IMG/VR virus record: IMGVR_UViG_3300020042_006211
Span: 1-28,999 of that record
DNA length: 28,999 nt
Source: a virus
Lineage: Duplodnaviria; Caudoviricetes
Reading direction: 5' to 3' (one strand)
A program made the position numbers and the translations under genes. This document shows, piece by piece, positions 1,599 through 28,371 of the stretch. The notes beneath the pieces are model-generated. The model was not told the DNA's origin and made no database searches. It was given only the letters and a program-made list of their open reading frames with translations. The first letter of the stretch is position 1. Every line of letters begins with the position of its first letter.

Positions 1599-4500
1599 AT
1601 GGCTTTTGATTCCTCGTCCGCACTTCTTGAAGAACCAGTAGGTTTTGACGCATCGACAGCAGTTGAAGATACTGAGTTTGACGCATCAACAGCAGTTGAA
1701 GATACTGAGTTTGATGCGTCTAGCGCGCTGCCAGAAGATTCTACTGTGCCAATAACGCCAACCTCCAATGTTATTGCCAACATGGGTCGCAGCTTTCTTG
1801 GCGGTGTTGCCGGAGGAGTGGCTGATATTGTGGGTGGCGCAGCCGGTATATTGGCAGGGCCAGGGCGAAGTGACGCAGAAGACATTGCGGAGTTTGAAAC
1901 AAAGTCAGCGGCGCTTTCCGCCAAGCCATCAATATTTAAAGACTTCACGGAAGAACAGATTACCGGGATGCAAGCTGCGCCAGAAGGTTATCGCACGCCA
2001 CAGGAGGAGGTGCAGCTTGCTTCTTATGATAGCACGCTGAAAACTTTGCGTGAACGGCAGGCAAAAAACGCTCCGATTCAGCAGGGACTTGAAGACTTTC
2101 AAAAACTTTCATCCGAAGCCTCGAAAGAGGCGCAAACCTTTTTCGGCCAAGACCCAGCGCGACAGGACGAGTTCCTTTCCAAACTTGCTGCCGGGGCTGG
2201 ATCACTGCCACCCTACATCGCCAGCAGTATTGCGGGCGGTCCAGTATTGTCTATGATGACTGGTGCATTGCAAACCGGCCAGAACGAATACAACGCGGCT
2301 ATTGAGGCTGGCAGACCAGACCTTGCCGACGAGGCGATGGTCAAAGGCATGGGTATTGGCTTGACCGAAGGAGCGGGCGTCGGCGGTGGGCTTGGAAAAG
2401 CGGCACAGGGCTTTGCTGCGAAGGCGTTGGTGACTCTCAAAAAAGGTTTTGAGGAAGGTGGGCAAGAATGGGTGCAGAACACGCTTTCTAATTTAAACGC
2501 TTCTACATTTACCGGATACGATCCGGCGCGCCCCGCGCTCAAGGGCAGCGGAGAAGCGTTTGCTATTGGCGCAATTCTTGGTGGTGGCGTTGAAGGCGCA
2601 ACGCAGCCGTTCCGTAGCGACAAAACAACCACACCGTCAGTCGCACCAGAAACTGCTGCCGCCGTGGCGCGCACGCAACCTGTCACTGTGACTGTGCCGG
2701 AAGTTGCGCCAATCCAGCAAAAACGCGAACCGACATCAGCGGAAAAGGCATTTGATGAAATGGCAGGAATTTCAGGAACATTGCCAAGTGGCAGTCTTGG
2801 CCCACCTGATCCAATCGTTGTAGAAGCCGAAGCAGTTGGAGCGACCCAGACTGCCGCCGCGCTTAACCAGACAATATTGCCAACCGAAACGCAACCCGCT
2901 GCTATCTCTACACCACCAAAAGCAGCGCCTGCTGTTGTTGCGCCGACTGTAACACCAGCAAATATTAACGCTGCAATAGACTCGGTAATCACGACAGGGA
3001 TAGATGAGGGAGCAGCAAGGATGGAGAAACAAGGCCGCGATCCTGAAGCATTTCGCCGCACTGTTGATCCTGTCAAAAAAGGAACTGTTGCAGTGCGCAC
3101 ACAAGCTGCGCTTAAATATTTATACCTAAAAATACGGACAGTTACAGGAGGAGAATATGACGGCTATTTAGTCACCGATGCGGACGCCGCTACTGCGGAA
3201 GTTTCTAACGCCGCAATTACTGCCAGACCCCAAGGAGGTTGGTTTTATAGAGGGCCAGCAAGTTTGATGTATCCGACAGGGTGGGGAGGAAGAAAAGGAA
3301 ATGTAAAGTTTTCGGCAAACGTGACAATGAGCGCGGGGTTAATATCCGATTTGGACACATTTGTAAGTAATTTACAAAAACAAGGCGTTGACGCTTATTA
3401 CAAAACACCAGATTCGGCTGCGGGATGGGAGTCCAGACATGATCCTGTTTCAATCTACTCAAGCGACACTTTTACCCCTGCTCAAACCGCTGCTCTTGCG
3501 GCAATACTGTCTCCTCATGTTCGATCTAATTCCGCTTCAGTAAACGAACTTACGGGAAATAAAATAGCAGATGGACTTTTTGAAGATGCAAACCCGTCTA
3601 AACAACAACTTGCGGAAGCTATTGCAAAAGCCAAATCGGTTGGTGGCGCAGAGTTTGGAGCAGCAATTGAGGCTTATCTTGGTAATAAGGCTTCTACCGG
3701 CCAGCTAAAAGCCGTAAATGATTTACTAAATTCTGCGTCTCAAACAACAGCGGCTGCGCCAGTTGCTGCAACGCCGCCCACCGTAACGCCGCCCACCGTA
3801 ACGCCGCCCACCGTAACGCCGCCCACCGTAACGCCAGCCCCTAAGACCGAAGCGGTAACAATAAGTGATATTACAAAAAGGTTTCCAGATGGCTTTCCTT
3901 CAATTGCCGAGCTTGAAAAGATAGCTCAAGACTTAGGGATTGATTCTGAAGTAAAGGTTAAAAGAGGGTCCTCCGAAGCTATTGCTAAAGCAAAAGCCGC
4001 TGGAGAATCGACTGCTGATGATTACATCCAAGTGCAACTCATGGAGAGGATCATTCAAGCGGAACGTGCCGCGCCAGCACCTGTTACCCCAGCACCCGTA
4101 GCAACCGCTCCGCAGTCACCTGCACCCGTAGTGCAGGCGGCTGCGCCAGTGGCAAGAGCCATGACGCGTTCCGAAATAAACGAGCGGATTGCAGTGTTGT
4201 TGAAAGCCCCAGCAAAGGCAGGCGGAAAACCGCGTGTTTCATTTAAGACGCAAGCTGAAGAAGCGTCGTTCCGTAGAGGATTTGAGGCCGCAAATAAAAA
4301 GCCCGGTGAGTCGCCACCAGAACAGCGCCCAGGAGTTCCAGCTAAAGAGCAAAAAATTTACGACGCTTTTTCGCAAGGGTGGAGTCAGGCGCAGACAACC
4401 ATTCGTTCACTCAATCAGCCTACCCCCGCGCCAGCACCTGTTGCCACAGCGCCCGCAACACAAGCGCCCGCAGCGCAGGCGGCTGCGTCGGAAGTAGCCG

Positions 4501-7500
4501 CGCCCGCTCCCGTAGCACCCGCAGCACAGGGACCTTCGCAAGTATCGGGAGCAGAAAAAACCTTGGCTGAAACAAAATCTAAAGCGAAACCAGACAAAAT
4601 TGAGTCTGCTTTTGACAAGGCAATTGATGCGTTAAAACCCAGCAAAGGCACGCTTTACGCCGATCCGTTATTTATTCAGACCGTTGGCCGTCCCGCACTG
4701 CGCGCAGCACTGCAAGTGGCGCGTGCTGCCTACCGCGCCGGAAAGACCGTGGCGCAGGCTGTGGCAGAGGGTATCGCACACCTAAAAACTCTGGTCAAGA
4801 ATCTGGACGAAGCCAAGGCGCAAGAGTTCTTTGCTGAAGCCGGTCTGGATGATGGCTTGCCGATGCCCGGCGAACTCGTCGAAGGCGGACGCGAAGGAGA
4901 ATACTACACCCGCGTAGCCGAGCGCGACAAAGGCACATTGAGCGACAACGCAATGAAAGTTGTTCGCAACCGCACTACGCTGCCGGACACTTTCAAAAAG
5001 GATTTGGACGAAGCCGCAAAGATACTGCTTGAAACCAATGAAGGCGACTTGCGTTCCGCACTGAATCGCTCCAAGGAAATGAGCGCATCTGGCATCAAGG
5101 ACTACTTCAGCGGACTCACAGACCGCCGCAAAGCCGCTCTGCTTTTCCTGATAGCACAAAACGCCGCCACTCAACGCGAGACGGCTACCGACCCGAAACA
5201 AATTGCGGCACTTAAGGATATTGAGGCCGAGGCTATTGCGGACTTTACCGACATGATGAGTCAGGGTGGTAAGCTATTGAACATTGCGGGTCAGCTTTAC
5301 GCCGCTATGCCGATGTCGCCAGACGCGCAAGTTATGGCAGCAGAAAAGTTGCTAGCACGGATGACTGGAGGAAGGGCTGCGGAGGTAGAGGCAGCGCAAT
5401 TTATGGAGGGGCTTTCGGAGGCAATGAAGAAGCAACTTGCCGAGGCCATGTTGGGGCAACCGTGGAATGTGGTGAGCCAGTTGGAAATGGTGCGCGTCAT
5501 CGCAAAACTGGCAGCAGAAGGTTACGCAGGGAAACTAAATTTTGAGTTCAAAGTTACGCCACCATCAAAAGGGACGCGCCAGATTGTGCTTCCTGGACTG
5601 GCCGGGATGCGTGAATCGCTTGCTTCGATGTTGGCAAAGGGACTGGAGAGGAATTGGTGGCAAGCGCTTGCCGGGCCTCGCGCTCCCGTAGGGCCACTCA
5701 CTGCGGGCGTCAACTCTACGCAGAACCAGCTTGCCGGGATTCTTCGGCAAGTCATGGAAGCCAGAAAGCTCGTCAACAAGGAGCAGGCGGCAAAGCTCAC
5801 CGATGCGGAAAAGGTCGCGATGTTCATCGGCAAAAAGCAACTCAGTGAGGAAGCCGTTGCCAAGCTGGACGAATCCGTTTCCGAAGAAATCGAGAAGCAA
5901 GCCACGGAGGCAATAGAGGCGGCGGACGATGCCAACAAGCCAGCCGTCAAGGCGCAATGGGCGGCAATCCGCGATGCTTGGGAAGAAGCCACTTCATCCA
6001 TGAAGAACCGCCCGGCATCCAACGCTACGATGCGGCGGATGATCCACGCGGAGGCGAAGGAATCGGGGGTGGATTGGGATGCCGAAATGGACGCTGCTAA
6101 TGACGCTGCCTTGGCGCAACGGCTTGCAACGGCACTGGTAGAGCGCGTAAAAGCGGAAACATCCGGTGAGAAGTTGCCGGGCTTTCCGGCGCTCGATCTG
6201 GAATCATTGCGCTCGGCAGCGCTAGAGCAAGCGCAAACGGTGGTAGCAGCAAATCGCATTAAGTACACGGAGCGAATGATTGCCAAGGCACAGGCAGAGT
6301 TCAACAAGGCACTGGTGAGCGCCGAGTACGCAAAGCAGGCACCGCAACGGGAGGCCGAGGCTATTATTCGCGCTCATTCGCCGATTATTGCAAAGCTGAA
6401 CCTACCGGATTCCGTGCGAAAGGCGGTTCGCGACCTGTTCACCGAGCAGTTCCGCGCCAACCCTGAGCGAAATCAAGCAACTTTTGAGCGCGACATGACC
6501 GCGCTAGGCGTTCCGGCAGAAGCGGCTACCCGTCTTTACCAGATTGCCAACACTAGTCGTGGCATCCGCGAAGCCGCGCAGAAACTCGCGCAATACAAAC
6601 GTGCAACCGGCAAGACCGCACAACGGCAGGCCATGAGCGACGAGATGAAGGCGGCGGAGGAATCTATCCGAAACATCCTGATGAACAAGGGACGCCAGAC
6701 TTGGGATCAGGTGCGTGACAACCTTATAAACGGCGCGCTCAACCGGATGCCATTTGCTACTACGGCAGAGAGGGATGCAGCGGCGGATGCAATGATTGCC
6801 GACTTCAAGGCGCGCATGGATAAAGCAAAAGCGGTGCTACTCAAGCAACTTGAAAAAGGTACACCAACAGAAAGAAAGAAGACCAAAACCCTTGGCGAAA
6901 AACTGTTTAAACTTTTTGAAATTGGCGCGTTGGACAACGACGTTGCTACCCGTCTTTTCATGGAGAAAGCCGGAGTGCAGGAGTTCACGCCAGCGTTCCG
7001 CGATAAGCTAAAGAAAATGTATGAGGATGCAGAGGCAGCACCAGAAGGGATGCCTCGCGACCGCGTACTTGGGAACGTCGCTGTAGAAATTGCCCTTGCA
7101 AATCCTAAAACCTTTAGTTTCTGGTGGAACCTTGCTATGTCGATCAGCTACGGAAACATCCTTGGCGCTTTTACCACTATCTTTGTTAACAACCCTCTTG
7201 GCTCACTTGCAACATCGCTGGAAATGGTTGCAATGGGATCGTTGTCGAACAAGGGGGCTCGCGCAGAAACATTTAAAGGCGCTGTAAAAACGTGGGCTCG
7301 TTCGTTTGGCGACGGTGTAGCCATGATGCGTGATCTATGGAGTACTGGCGAGAACCTGCAAAAGATCAGCCAATTCGATTCCGCGCTCGTTAATAGCCCT
7401 GTTGAGTTGCTAGCGAAAATGGCGGAAGACCCATCTTACCCAAAATCGTTCAGAGTTGCGGCCAAGGCGGTATCGCAATACAAGTGGGTTATGCGCTCTA

Positions 7501-9086
7501 TGATGGCGGCGGATGCGGTGATTCGTTGGCCTGCGCGTGAGGCATTGCGATTTACTCAATCAGCCGCTATTGCCAAAGATACGCGTAGGCCAGGACAATC
7601 GCTGGAAGACGCTGTGGACGAACTAAATTATCCCGGCGGGCGGTTGGCAGCGTTGAAGGAATCACGCGCACAGGCGGCACAAGAGCTTAAGGATGGCACG
7701 TTAAAAACTAAACAAGACGAACGGCTGCGTGTTATTCAGCTACTCCAATCTAAGCTCTCGCCGGAAGGAACGGAAACGGCGTCGGAATCTGACGAGTTGG
7801 CTAACTACGGCTCACTGCTCAACGACCAACCACAGGATTTTATTGGCGTTATTGCCAGCGGCATTTTGAAGATAGCGTTCCCAAGCAACACTAAGAGCGA
7901 TTTGCAAAAGGCTCTTGGCGGTGCGCTACAACCATTTGTGCGCTTTGTCCGCACCAGCGCCAACGCCACTCGCGTAATGCTGGACTACTCCGTTGGCTAC
8001 GGTGCGTTCCGCTACATGACGCGCAACTGGCCCGTAATCGGCGCGGAATCGCTGGCTGGTGGAGTCAATCTTATGGAGGGACGCGCAGGCGATAAACTCA
8101 CCCAAGTACGCATCCAGCGCGCCTATCTTGGCATGGCGCTTTACGCCGGACTCGCTGCTATTTACGCCGCCATAGACGATGAGGAAGACCCTTACATTGA
8201 CTTTATTGGCAGCGGACCTACCACGCCAGATGAGCGTCGGCGCGTGCGAGAATCCGGTGTTCGTTTTAATTCCATCAAGATAGGAGACATTTACGTTCCT
8301 ACAAACGTAGGCCCGTTGCAACCGCTAGCCGGAATCTTGGGGCCGTTTCAGCGGATGCGCGACAATAAGAAATACCCAAAAGCAAAAGATGAATTTGATG
8401 AGCGTGTGCCTGAGACGGCTGGCGTAGCAATAGCAAAGGGTATTGCAGACGCAATGAGCAACCAATCTTTTACTCGTTCGTTAGCCGACCTACTCACAAT
8501 GGCTAACACCGGTAAAACTTCGTTTGGTGAAACACCGGATGAGTTTCTTGGCAAAACCTTGGCGCAATTTGTGCCAGGAAATTTGCGCGGACTCTCGCAA
8601 TTGGATGAGATTGTTAGAGGCAAAAAGGAACGCGCTGATGGATTTTTTGACACGGCAACAAACTCCATTGCCTTTTACGCTCCAAATGGTCGCGCCACCA
8701 CAATCCTTGGAGACAAGGTGGATGCCGGAAAATCCATAGCCCAAAAGGCTGGCGAAAAAGTTTTCCAATTTACCACAATTGCCGATGACAAAACTTTGCA
8801 ATTTGTTGTAAAAAACGGACTGTCTATACCGGATCGAAAACGCAAACCCAGCGATGGCAAGCGTCAAACTTATCTTGAGTATTCCGCCTACGTGCAAGAG
8901 AGCGGTAAGATGATGCGGAACTGGCTGGAAACAGAGAATCCAAAAACTGGCAAGACCGGAATGGAAATGTTGCAAGCTATTCCAGACAAAATTACCGTAG
9001 AAAAAGGCAAAACAATTAACTTAAGAAAGCAAGAAATGAACAAGTTGTGGGTTGATTTTCGCGAAGTTGCACTAACAAAGCAATGA
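1599..9086 (+). CDS. Giant (2495 aa) internal virion/ejection protein, polyvalent-like
   Basis: Very long ORF with acidic N-terminal repeats, Gly/Ala-rich membrane-like segments (aa ~60-340), Pro/Ala/Thr linkers flanking small globular inserts, a long helical core and a hydrophobic segment near the C-terminus. This architecture is typical of large podovirus ejection proteins. Confidence 0.7.
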   Translation: MAFDSSSALLEEPVGFDASTAVEDTEFDASTAVEDTEFDASSALPEDSTVPITPTSNVIANMGRSFLGGVAGGVADIVGGAAGILAGPGRSDAEDIAEFETKSAALSAKPSIFKDFTEEQITGMQAAPEGYRTPQEEVQLASYDSTLKTLRERQAKNAPIQQGLEDFQKLSSEASKEAQTFFGQDPARQDEFLSKLAAGAGSLPPYIASSIAGGPVLSMMTGALQTGQNEYNAAIEAGRPDLADEAMVKGMGIGLTEGAGVGGGLGKAAQGFAAKALVTLKKGFEEGGQEWVQNTLSNLNASTFTGYDPARPALKGSGEAFAIGAILGGGVEGATQPFRSDKTTTPSVAPETAAAVARTQPVTVTVPEVAPIQQKREPTSAEKAFDEMAGISGTLPSGSLGPPDPIVVEAEAVGATQTAAALNQTILPTETQPAAISTPPKAAPAVVAPTVTPANINAAIDSVITTGIDEGAARMEKQGRDPEAFRRTVDPVKKGTVAVRTQAALKYLYLKIRTVTGGEYDGYLVTDADAATAEVSNAAITARPQGGWFYRGPASLMYPTGWGGRKGNVKFSANVTMSAGLISDLDTFVSNLQKQGVDAYYKTPDSAAGWESRHDPVSIYSSDTFTPAQTAALAAILSPHVRSNSASVNELTGNKIADGLFEDANPSKQQLAEAIAKAKSVGGAEFGAAIEAYLGNKASTGQLKAVNDLLNSASQTTAAAPVAATPPTVTPPTVTPPTVTPPTVTPAPKTEAVTISDITKRFPDGFPSIAELEKIAQDLGIDSEVKVKRGSSEAIAKAKAAGESTADDYIQVQLMERIIQAERAAPAPVTPAPVATAPQSPAPVVQAAAPVARAMTRSEINERIAVLLKAPAKAGGKPRVSFKTQAEEASFRRGFEAANKKPGESPPEQRPGVPAKEQKIYDAFSQGWSQAQTTIRSLNQPTPAPAPVATAPATQAPAAQAAASEVAAPAPVAPAAQGPSQVSGAEKTLAETKSKAKPDKIESAFDKAIDALKPSKGTLYADPLFIQTVGRPALRAALQVARAAYRAGKTVAQAVAEGIAHLKTLVKNLDEAKAQEFFAEAGLDDGLPMPGELVEGGREGEYYTRVAERDKGTLSDNAMKVVRNRTTLPDTFKKDLDEAAKILLETNEGDLRSALNRSKEMSASGIKDYFSGLTDRRKAALLFLIAQNAATQRETATDPKQIAALKDIEAEAIADFTDMMSQGGKLLNIAGQLYAAMPMSPDAQVMAAEKLLARMTGGRAAEVEAAQFMEGLSEAMKKQLAEAMLGQPWNVVSQLEMVRVIAKLAAEGYAGKLNFEFKVTPPSKGTRQIVLPGLAGMRESLASMLAKGLERNWWQALAGPRAPVGPLTAGVNSTQNQLAGILRQVMEARKLVNKEQAAKLTDAEKVAMFIGKKQLSEEAVAKLDESVSEEIEKQATEAIEAADDANKPAVKAQWAAIRDAWEEATSSMKNRPASNATMRRMIHAEAKESGVDWDAEMDAANDAALAQRLATALVERVKAETSGEKLPGFPALDLESLRSAALEQAQTVVAANRIKYTERMIAKAQAEFNKALVSAEYAKQAPQREAEAIIRAHSPIIAKLNLPDSVRKAVRDLFTEQFRANPERNQATFERDMTALGVPAEAATRLYQIANTSRGIREAAQKLAQYKRATGKTAQRQAMSDEMKAAEESIRNILMNKGRQTWDQVRDNLINGALNRMPFATTAERDAAADAMIADFKARMDKAKAVLLKQLEKGTPTERKKTKTLGEKLFKLFEIGALDNDVATRLFMEKAGVQEFTPAFRDKLKKMYEDAEAAPEGMPRDRVLGNVAVEIALANPKTFSFWWNLAMSISYGNILGAFTTIFVNNPLGSLATSLEMVAMGSLSNKGARAETFKGAVKTWARSFGDGVAMMRDLWSTGENLQKISQFDSALVNSPVELLAKMAEDPSYPKSFRVAAKAVSQYKWVMRSMMAADAVIRWPAREALRFTQSAAIAKDTRRPGQSLEDAVDELNYPGGRLAALKESRAQAAQELKDGTLKTKQDERLRVIQLLQSKLSPEGTETASESDELANYGSLLNDQPQDFIGVIASGILKIAFPSNTKSDLQKALGGALQPFVRFVRTSANATRVMLDYSVGYGAFRYMTRNWPVIGAESLAGGVNLMEGRAGDKLTQVRIQRAYLGMALYAGLAAIYAAIDDEEDPYIDFIGSGPTTPDERRRVRESGVRFNSIKIGDIYVPTNVGPLQPLAGILGPFQRMRDNKKYPKAKDEFDERVPETAGVAIAKGIADAMSNQSFTRSLADLLTMANTGKTSFGETPDEFLGKTLAQFVPGNLRGLSQLDEIVRGKKERADGFFDTATNSIAFYAPNGRATTILGDKVDAGKSIAQKAGEKVFQFTTIADDKTLQFVVKNGLSIPDRKRKPSDGKRQTYLEYSAYVQESGKMMRNWLETENPKTGKTGMEMLQAIPDKITVEKGKTINLRKQEMNKLWVDFREVALTKQ
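1644..1721 (+). repeat. 33-bp in-frame tandem repeat (FDASTAVEDTE x2 plus a partial copy)
   Basis: tttgacgcatc(g/a)acagcagttgaagatactgag at 1644 and 1677, with a partial copy at 1710. Confidence 0.9.
3770..3835 (+). repeat. Perfect 15-bp tandem repeat, about 4.4 copies (TPPTV)n
   Basis: aacgccgcccaccgt occurs four times identically, followed by aacgcc. Confidence 0.95.
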
Positions 9087-24611: not shown

Positions 24612-24751
24612 AAATCCTACTCGCCATGCTCTGCCTCACCCTAACCGGCTGCGCCGTGGATTACACCACGAAGACCGGAGGCAGGTTCCGCTTTGAGCTG
24701 ACCGGCTCGCCCACGGAATATATCGAAGCCGGACGTTCCTACCGCAAATGA
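24608..24751 (+). CDS. Small lipoprotein (47 aa), o-spanin candidate; absent from the ORF track
   Basis: MKILLAMLCLTLTG-CAVDY... contains the lipobox LTGC; ATGA overlaps at both ends. Confidence 0.7.
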   Translation: MKILLAMLCLTLTGCAVDYTTKTGGRFRFELTGSPTEYIEAGRSYRK

Positions 24752-25233
24752 AAACCCTCGCAGAAAAACTTGTAGCTTTAACCCGACCCGAAATCGGCGT
24801 CGAAGAAGTTGACGGCACGAACTGCGGCGTTCGCGTTGATGCCTACAAGTCTGCGACCAACCTGCCGCCGCATGAGGCATGGCCGTGGTGCGCCGCTTTC
24901 GTTTGCTGGCTCGTCCGAGAGGCAATGCGTGATGGTGGACCTTACACCTTCGCTCGTCCGACCACTGCGGGCGCGTGGGACTTTGAGAATTGGTCGCTGA
25001 AGCAAGACGACTCGACACATACTCTACGCAACCCCGGCCGTAACATCGCTCCCGGCGACATCGTGATCTTCAAGTTCTCTCACATCGGCATTTGCTTGCG
25101 AGGACCAGAGGCTGGACGCATCCGCACGGTGGAAGGCAACACCGACGCCGCAGGCTTACGCGAGGGCGGTGGAGTATTCGAGAAATCTCGTTCTCTGGAC
25201 AGCATCAAAACCCGCATCCGCTTTACCGTGTGA
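24748..25233 (+). CDS. CHAP-domain endolysin
   Basis: PWCAAFVCW (catalytic Cys), PGDIVIF, HIGI (catalytic His) and TVEGNT. Confidence 0.9.
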   Translation: MKTLAEKLVALTRPEIGVEEVDGTNCGVRVDAYKSATNLPPHEAWPWCAAFVCWLVREAMRDGGPYTFARPTTAGAWDFENWSLKQDDSTHTLRNPGRNIAPGDIVIFKFSHIGICLRGPEAGRIRTVEGNTDAAGLREGGGVFEKSRSLDSIKTRIRFTV

Positions 25234-27022: not shown

Positions 27023-27265
27023 ATGGCATACGAAATGAAAGAAAACAGCGGCTCGATGTTCGTGAATACGAAGAAAGAGAAAGACACGCATCCCGACAGG
27101 AACGGAACCGCGCTTATCGGCGGTGTCGAATATTACGTTTCTGGATGGATCAAAGAAACCAAGTCAGGTGACAAGTGGCTGTCGCTTGCGTTCAAACCCA
27201 AGGAGCAAGCACTTAGCAAGCCGCCGTCCTTTAGCAAGGATGACGAGGACCAAATTCCCTTCTGA
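27023..27265 (+). CDS. Small ssDNA-binding-like protein (DUF736-like) with SSB-type acidic tail
   Basis: G.MF.N..K..DTHPD..G, SGW.K..K.G.K.LSL pattern and C-terminal DDEDQIPF; adjacent to ERF. Confidence 0.7.
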   Translation: MAYEMKENSGSMFVNTKKEKDTHPDRNGTALIGGVEYYVSGWIKETKSGDKWLSLAFKPKEQALSKPPSFSKDDEDQIPF

Positions 27266-27741
27266 TGCAGCGATCCGAATCAATCGCCGCTCTTGCTGCT
27301 GCGCTTTCCAAGGCACAAGCAGCAATGGGTGCAGCTAAGAAAGACAGCACCAACCCGCACTTCAAGTCACGTTATGCAGACCTAGCTTCTATTTGGGACG
27401 CATGCCGCGAGCCGCTGACGAAAAACGGACTGGCCATCGTGCAACTGCCAGGAAAAGATGAGGCAGGCTACTACGTAGAGACTTTGCTGACTCATGCTAG
27501 CGGTGAGTTCATCGGCGAGAAGCTGCACATCGTCCCGACCAAGGACGATCCGCAGGGACTCGGCAGTGCAATCACCTACGCTCGACGCTACGGCCTTTCG
27601 GCTGTCGCTGGTATCGCACCAGATGACGATGATGCCGAGGCAGCTATGGGTCGCACTGACGTTCGCCGTGAGCAGTCAGCAAGAGCGGTCGTGCAAGGCA
27701 AGCCACAGCCAATCGGAAAGTCTTCACAGGAAGACTTCTAA
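27265..27741 (+). CDS. erf: ERF-family ssDNA annealing protein
   Basis: KDSTNPHFKSRYADL, L...GL...Q, T.L.H.SGE and PQGLGSAITYARRYGL..DDDA motifs. Confidence 0.92.
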   Translation: MQRSESIAALAAALSKAQAAMGAAKKDSTNPHFKSRYADLASIWDACREPLTKNGLAIVQLPGKDEAGYYVETLLTHASGEFIGEKLHIVPTKDDPQGLGSAITYARRYGLSAVAGIAPDDDDAEAAMGRTDVRREQSARAVVQGKPQPIGKSSQEDF

Positions 27742-27790: not shown

Positions 27791-28159
27791 ATGACCGAAA
27801 TGACAGACGCAATGCGGAGATGTATGCACCGCGAGCCAACCCTTAGAAAACCCAATGCTAACCATAACACTAACGATACCGGGAAAACTCCCATCCCTCA
27901 ACGCACTGCTGGCAATGCAGCACTGGTCGAGGCACAAGTTCAAAGCGGAACTGGCGACCGTATTCTCATCCGCATTGAGAGCGTCAGAAAACGACTCCTG
28001 GATGAGGACAACCTTGTTTCCAAATATCACACAGACCTTTGCCGATACTCTGGACTCATACCTTCGGACGCGCCGGGAATCTGCAAAATTGAAACAAGCC
28101 AACGCAAAGCCGAGAAAGGCGAAGAGGAGAGGACGGAGATAACCATTACCTACCCGTGA
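27791..28159 (+). CDS. RusA-like Holliday junction resolvase, catalytic (C-terminal-half) motifs (122 aa)
   Basis: ILIRIESVRKRLLDEDNL..K...D......GLIPSD...Q.K....E.TEITI matches the RusA-like D.DN..K...D...G...D pattern. Confidence 0.6.
   Translation: MTEMTDAMRRCMHREPTLRKPNANHNTNDTGKTPIPQRTAGNAALVEAQVQSGTGDRILIRIESVRKRLLDEDNLVSKYHTDLCRYSGLIPSDAPGICKIETSQRKAEKGEEERTEITITYP
27855..28142 (+). CDS. Nested overlapping ORF (95 aa) with RusA-like N-terminal motifs and a basic tail
   Basis: MLTITLTIPGKLPSLN....HWSRHKFK resembles the N-terminal strand and helix of phage RusA-like proteins. Confidence 0.5.
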   Translation: MLTITLTIPGKLPSLNALLAMQHWSRHKFKAELATVFSSALRASENDSWMRTTLFPNITQTFADTLDSYLRTRRESAKLKQANAKPRKAKRRGRR

Positions 28160-28197
28160 AAACCATTACAAATTAACAAGCCAACAAGGAAACAGTT

Positions 28198-28371
28198 ATG
28201 ACCGAAGACAACGAAAGATACTGGGCAGACCAAGCAGAGAAAACCAGAGGCGAGGCCGAGCCAAAGCGGAGGGTGTATCGCTGCCGCGACCGGATGTGCG
28301 GAGGAGAGGACTGTGCTACTTGCTACGGCGAGCAGGCAGCAAGTGATTTTGTAAACCAAGAAGAACAATGA
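28198..28371 (+). CDS. Small Cys-cluster protein (57 aa); absent from the ORF track
   Basis: AAGGA upstream; CRDRMCGGEDCATC motif; ATGA overlap with the next gene. Confidence 0.6.
   Translation: MTEDNERYWADQAEKTRGEAEPKRRVYRCRDRMCGGEDCATCYGEQAASDFVNQEEQ

Follow-up and report, generated by a model that had tools for sequence, protein, structure and literature searches.

We propose that a single small nuclease domain of the RusA type is encoded in this virus as two chains, read from two nested frames of the same strand. The window (the whole stretch of 28,999 nucleotides that was analyzed) contains ORF B (27791-28159, plus strand; 122 amino acids counted from 27791), in which a variable leader precedes the back half, with the catalytic residues, of a RusA-like resolvase. 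Wholly nested within it, in the +1 frame relative to ORF B, is ORF A (27855-28142, plus strand; 95 amino acids from an ATG start), which supplies a first strand, a PSxN motif and a long helix before continuing into another helix and a basic tail. An earlier note, made from the sequence alone, had pointed to this nesting, and both ORFs are present as it described them. Most probably, A and B are separately initiated chains that are predicted to complement each other into one resolvase, whose activity we infer from the comparisons below. We also regard as fairly likely, taken as a whole, a broader scenario in which one small domain is made as two nested-frame chains, with eight codons encoding both a helix of A and a core strand of B; the arrangement would have been born of a frameshifting deletion rescued by overprinting, would have spread to roughly a thousand protein clusters, and would in certain lineages have both chains re-initiating at one upstream stop.

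The A/B pair lies directly downstream of a gene for an ERF-type single-strand annealing protein (27265-27741, plus strand; PF04404, 5e-24) and of a single-strand DNA binding protein-like gene (27023-27265, plus strand; phrog_7364, 4e-11); a position downstream of SSB-like and ERF-type genes is a usual one for a junction resolvase. Elsewhere, the window encodes a CHAP-domain endolysin (24748-25233), preceded by small ORFs resembling lysis or membrane proteins, and, within the structural region, a 2495-amino-acid ORF (1599-9086); PHROG matches of the large ORFs neighboring the latter were absent or faint among those tested. The virus record is 56% complete by its own estimate. The sequencing runs containing the A/B region are mainly freshwater metagenomes, and relatives of the pair occur in two Verrucomicrobium genomes and a Verrucomicrobia MAG, from which a verrucomicrobial host appears likely, and also in two MAGs from other groups. 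Pfam gave no match for the window's A or B, nor for any of 43 B members, the window's own ORF A matched no family among the Pfam and PHROG profiles, and in an annotated phage collection B had no match and A only an unrelated one from Vibrio.

Both frames are open throughout the close relatives of the window's pair. Scans with ORF B fetched 165 loci (166 including the window), 160 of which have the catalytic motif; with 11 truncated loci dropped, the remaining 149 represent 105 distinct cores, which form 37 clusters at 80% identity. Across the overlap, frame A is open in 105/105 of these distinct close loci, frame B in 105/105 and the third frame in 1/105. Because the loci were retrieved via ORF B, the search exerted no selection for the conservation of ORF A. 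The earlier note had allowed that homologs might prove contiguous or that stops might interrupt one frame in close relatives; none of the close homologs has a contiguous ORF, and neither frame is broken at any of the 105 loci. A wider set, enlarged by using divergent members as queries in three more viral scans and one genome search, comprises 332 loci, of which 319 were anchored and 13 dropped, yielding 173 distinct loci in 68 clusters. Here, a profile of the first 44 residues of ORF A matched in the +1 frame at 169 of the 173 distinct loci and in B's frame at none; the four non-matching loci are L277, which is split on inspection by eye, and three contiguous RusA-like genes. Two loci, L359 and L360, are contiguous too and were not anchored by the profile. 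Among database proteins, both halves are found in one frame in 1/187 and 0/147. The family, which belongs to uncultured phages, extends to 1,024 clusters (50% identity, E up to 1e-10), some of which may be contiguous relatives. In the DNA runs X1 and X6 (122 and 177 contigs) there is no indel or joint within either ORF, and the nested layout is not an assembly error.

To gauge these observations, one protein was held fixed and synonymous codons were resampled under three codon models. With the B protein fixed, A is expected to be open past the helix in 4.7-9.8 of 37 clusters, against 37 observed, and 44-66 stops are expected in frame A beyond the helix, where none is observed. Conversely, with the A protein fixed, 7.0-8.1 of 37 clusters are expected to keep B open ahead of its first strand, against 37 observed, and 55-58 stops are expected in frame B, again with none observed. 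In each of the two control segments, the third frame is open in 2/37 clusters. These nulls, like the z-scores below, count related clusters as independent, and their significance is hence inflated by shared ancestry; the peaks are clear. Judged by these sequence comparisons, both frames are selected to stay open.

Several lines of evidence relate ORF B to the back half of RusA. Of 43 B members, 19 match phrog_34 (best 2e-7) and 16 match phrog_1682. The catalytic motif of B (28001-28024, plus strand) contains D71, D73, N74 and K78, the inferred equivalents of RusA D70, D72, N73 and K76, while D93 (28067-28069, plus strand), present in 37/37 close clusters, would be equivalent to RusA D91; alignments to contiguous relatives agree with these assignments. 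According to passages of PMC1636454, RusA requires D70, D72, K76 and D90/D91, and its N73, R69 and S13-N15 region contact DNA. Across the 66 split clusters of the wider set, the acidic residues recur at fixed offsets of 0, +2 and +22 (D in 66/66, 65/66 and 63/66, two of the three misses at +22 having a 2-residue insertion). The Asn equivalent to N73 is found in 62/66 and a Lys at +7 in 63/66, the latter with the spacing of the canonical-type L279; upstream, Arg occupies positions -5 (64/66) and -3 (62/66), and position -1 is Leu/Ile in 58/66, making the site of RusA R69 hydrophobic. In a tally of the RusA residues, the acidic residues, the Asn and the Lys are accounted for by B, and the Ser and Asn of the front region by A. 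A structural model of B predicts three strands and one main helix (strand-helix-strand-strand) behind a low-confidence leader, of which residues 1-24 mostly have a pLDDT below 50. In the PDB it most resembles E. coli RusA (prob 0.97, E 0.14), with an alignment to RusA residues 52/53-117 only (Z 5.0, rmsd 2.6, 63 residues), a modest score in that unrelated folds score up to Z 4.3; a sequence search of the PDB with the B profile did not find RusA.

The leader of B (27791-27958, plus strand) is stop-free and traverses the conserved codons of A in the -1 frame. It is barely constrained as a protein, with z above 4 at 1/34 positions, as expected for a passenger segment that would be read from an upstream start. 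The B frame is open from 27491, with its first ATG at 27494, and the plausible starts are 27791 or 27800, the latter being common to close relatives. An FPxAS motif recurs in the leader upstream of the A start in 28/147 representatives and is absent from the window's clade.

ORF A, in turn, holds counterparts of the front half. Its PSLN motif (27891-27902, plus strand) would correspond to the S13/N15 region in E. coli RusA, and the PSxN motif is kept in frame A with Ser in 61/66 and Asn in 64/66 clusters; it is followed by an HW-x-R-x3-K helix that runs through a conserved Phe and Leu (27921-27977, plus strand). Weak matches to phrog_1682 were obtained for 3/43 A members (E 0.04-0.25), and on this profile the two sets of matches are complementary, A relatives covering positions 28-72 and B relatives 81-143. 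Against the contiguous gene L360, A likewise aligns to residues 2-32 (hhalign probability 17%, E 0.0015) and B to 54-113, these being low-probability alignments with E about 0.001. Taken together, motifs and profile matches show A to be the predicted first strand, PSxN motif and helix 1 that B lacks. The RusA-like character that the earlier note had assigned to both halves is thus recovered, for B over RusA 52-117 with its catalytic residues and for A as a weak match to the front of phrog_1682. A second, contiguous RusA was also sought in five related phage records; the search recovered just B in one and not even B in the other four, and is therefore too insensitive to show absence.

The two halves meet in a stretch of eight doubly constrained codons (27959-27982, plus strand), where the last part of the A helix and B's first strand use the same nucleotides, as previously proposed for this locus. 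These codons stand out in both frames (z 5.6-10.1 for A and 5.6-11.6 for B). The reduction in synonymous variation that the earlier note had suggested looking for is seen in the B wobble base, which is invariant at both the Phe and the Leu of A in 37/37 clusters each. The most variable codon position is A's third upstream of the B strand and B's third downstream of it.

The second half of ORF A has no counterpart in the RusA fold. The helices predicted for A span residues 15-20, 23-47 and 58-94, with the N-terminus unpaired when A is modeled alone, and a second constrained patch (28041-28064, plus strand) corresponds to helix 2. This patch is kept in the main clade and is missing in several divergent lineages, its Leu being present in 43/66 clusters. 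That helix 2 and the basic tail lie outside the RusA fold and are, in the case of the helix, constrained could mean that both frames are translated without jointly forming an active nuclease, A being a DNA-binding or regulatory peptide, or the pair binding junctions without cleavage, or B having some other partner. The Arg that precedes the catalytic Asp is moreover absent in B, and one contig in run X15 skips 27862-28205, implying that relatives can lack or replace the A/B pair. We nevertheless consider these possibilities rather unlikely: the conserved part of A is exactly what B lacks, and the catalytic acidic positions of B are all conserved. Moreover, A terminates just 4 codons past the catalytic Asp in L348 and 8 in L277, leaving only its RusA-like half universal. 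As A ends 4-36 codons past this Asp in several divergent lineages, helix 2 looks like a later addition.

How the two chains might be made is suggested by their start codons. An ATG in frame A upstream of the first strand is found in 35/37 clusters, against 9.6 expected and 3 for the third frame, and in 65/66 split clusters of the wider set, although many A starts have no clear Shine-Dalgarno sequence. For B, an ATG is available upstream of the PSxN motif at 82/105 loci, and most of the others offer GTG or TTG candidates. The A and B starts lie no more than 13 nt apart in 22/66 clusters, a modest excess over the 13.6 +/- 3.0 obtained by permutation. At L212, an upstream stop in B is followed by a Met belonging to B immediately ahead of the PSxN region, and at L215 and L357 A starts directly after an upstream stop. 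In five loci (L215, L224, L290, L302 and L357), an upstream frame-A gene ends in TGA, a candidate start of B overlaps this stop and the A start follows at once, such that both could re-initiate; in L357, B is cut at +20. A different variant, L034, shares a contig with L004 and has an A-run before the A start that is one base shorter than in close relatives, fusing the B leader to A and leaving B without an upstream ATG; it could be an error, a defective variant or a case of slippage-dependent expression.

The earlier note had left two options, a split enzyme assembled from overprinted polypeptides and recoding into alternative products. The first is favored, because the ATG of A is selected and the B leader is kept open, which would be needless for a frameshift product; the second is disfavored, because no slippery site is conserved. 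In detail, recoding would yield a single chain by a -1 frameshift from A into B, by a backward hop or by transcript slippage that re-reads the shared codons. The window does have the G GGA AAA heptamer noticed earlier (27881-27887, plus strand), which is in frame with A, with a modest hairpin downstream (z -1.85). This heptamer, which we do not treat as functional, is present at the window's site in 1/37 clusters and 21/105 loci, confined to the window's clade, and a frameshift there was rejected as a family mechanism on account of this lack of conservation. Strict heptamers do occur somewhere in frame A in 11/66 clusters, but they are spread over four positions and are no commoner than in frame B (10/66). 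As the earlier note had argued, one forward shift cannot retain both the helix end and the strand, since constraint falls on the same eight codons in either frame. A backward hop could in principle re-read them, but the best matched pair of take-off and landing codons occurs in 16/37 clusters, and with no pair exceeding this the hop too was rejected as a family mechanism. Recoding also leaves unexplained the long open stretches of B on the upstream side and of A on the downstream side.

One database protein, P0110 (94 amino acids; counterpart of window 27855-28159), does join A residues 1-46 to the end of B, via a short deletion between two repeated triplets; being a single sequence from a single contig, with the catalytic motif deleted and without B's strand and catalytic aspartates, it was rejected as a fused enzyme. 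Another candidate, P0212, is a spurious repeat match. The sole RNA-library contig over the region (run X18, depth 2.4) spans 27869-28144 without a joint; runs X19 and X20 do not cover the A/B pair, and X15-X17 are probably DNA. One sentence in PMC10885494 names "RusA/RuvC" among genes with known frameshifts; the range of references cited there includes a 1991 ruvC paper and, as far as that passage goes, not the nested layout, and we did not accept it as a precedent. Expression through recoding therefore strikes us as improbable. As for the notion that only B is a gene and A a shadow of its codon use, or that the locus is a broken gene or an assembly error, gene callers do mostly keep B alone (196 B proteins against 3 for A) and stops are naturally scarce in the +1 frame, which 13-26% of null draws leave open, but we hold this notion to be highly improbable, given that conservation upstream of the B strand tracks frame A, that the deep DNA runs are free of indels in the ORFs, and that the homolog census, with open frames, fixed spacing and ATG selection over 66 lineages, refutes it.

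Returning to the two-chain reading, A and B would be translated from separate start codons, and the first strand and helix of A would dock on B to complete a four-stranded sheet, which in RusA is a mixed one accompanied by two helices. Two such A/B pairs might then dimerize as does RusA, whose dimer cleaves four-way junctions with Mg2+, and the resulting enzyme would cut branched DNA arising from the neighboring ERF/SSB recombination genes. As to origin, we suggest that a contiguous gene underwent a deletion of roughly 45-60 nt together with a change of frame, through which the linker and the last part of helix 1 would have been lost; the +1 reading of the strand that follows may then have supplied a new helix end, with the back half adopting an upstream start. 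This scheme of deletion, frame change and rebuilt helix end would fit the spacing data: PSxN and the catalytic Asp are separated by 37 codons plus one base in 64/66 split clusters (61 by pattern and 3 by Asn position), 41 codons in L277 and L358, and 52-57 codons in four contiguous genes. A tree of 69 B-type cores has too few columns to settle whether the split had a single origin. Among the more unusual members, a very divergent dual-frame copy (L277:1303-1692, in G253) lies in a bacterial genome beside a primase-like gene. One contig bears two dual-frame copies (L076 and L077) 1.7 kb apart that share the same core and have different leaders, while L077 surrounds a different core with a leader and tail of the window's type, which suggests either intragenic recombination or an assembly repeat.

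Compared with E. coli RusA (PDB 1Q8R, 2H8C and 2H8E; phrog_34 and phrog_1682), the pair shares the fold of the back half (B on residues 52/53-117), the Asp/Asp/Asn/Lys/Asp pattern, a basic stretch before the first Asp, a PSxN-type front motif and a phage recombination context. However, RusA is one chain from one ORF, whereas the A/B domain is divided over two nested frames; further, B has a disordered leader, A carries one more helix together with a basic tail, a hydrophobic residue precedes the catalytic Asp, and the spacing from this Asp to the Lys is 7 residues in place of 6. As it lacks the single-chain feature, we class the pair as a RusA variant rather than a plain member. The contiguous genes L359, L360 and L361, which match phrog_1682 and phrog_34 along their length, resemble it in having an SLN..M.HW..R front motif and an LDDDN catalytic motif, but each is a single ORF with 52-54 codons from motif to Asp, against 37 codons plus one base in A/B.

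Among overlapping genes, the closest parallel in layout is lambda Rz/Rz1, described in passages of PMC6139136 as a same-strand gene embedded in the +1 frame that was missed by gene callers. The Rz and Rz1 products form a complex, whereas for A and B complex formation is predicted only, and Rz and Rz1 are different proteins, each anchored in the membrane, unlike A and B, which appear to be halves of one small domain that is contiguous in relatives. A review (PMC8227390) refers to 11 viral overlapping-gene cases with interacting products; in the cases as it summarizes them the products share a pathway and bind each other, which is the likeness proposed for A/B, but they are separate proteins rather than fragments of one fold. 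The literature searched, which mostly did not include subscription papers, holds no description of a resolvase split across nested frames.

The customary account of overlapping genes is that a novel protein came to be encoded on top of an existing one. At this locus, by contrast, each frame appears to hold one half of a single ancestral domain; this would demonstrate a gene fission completed by overprinting and then fixed over deep divergence. Since gene callers keep one frame, the family is annotated as hypothetical. In those lineages where both chains may re-initiate at one upstream stop, this would fix their ratio. The locus offers, within 370 bases, a directly testable model of dual coding constraint, of fragment complementation and of the setting of a subunit ratio via paired out-of-frame starts.
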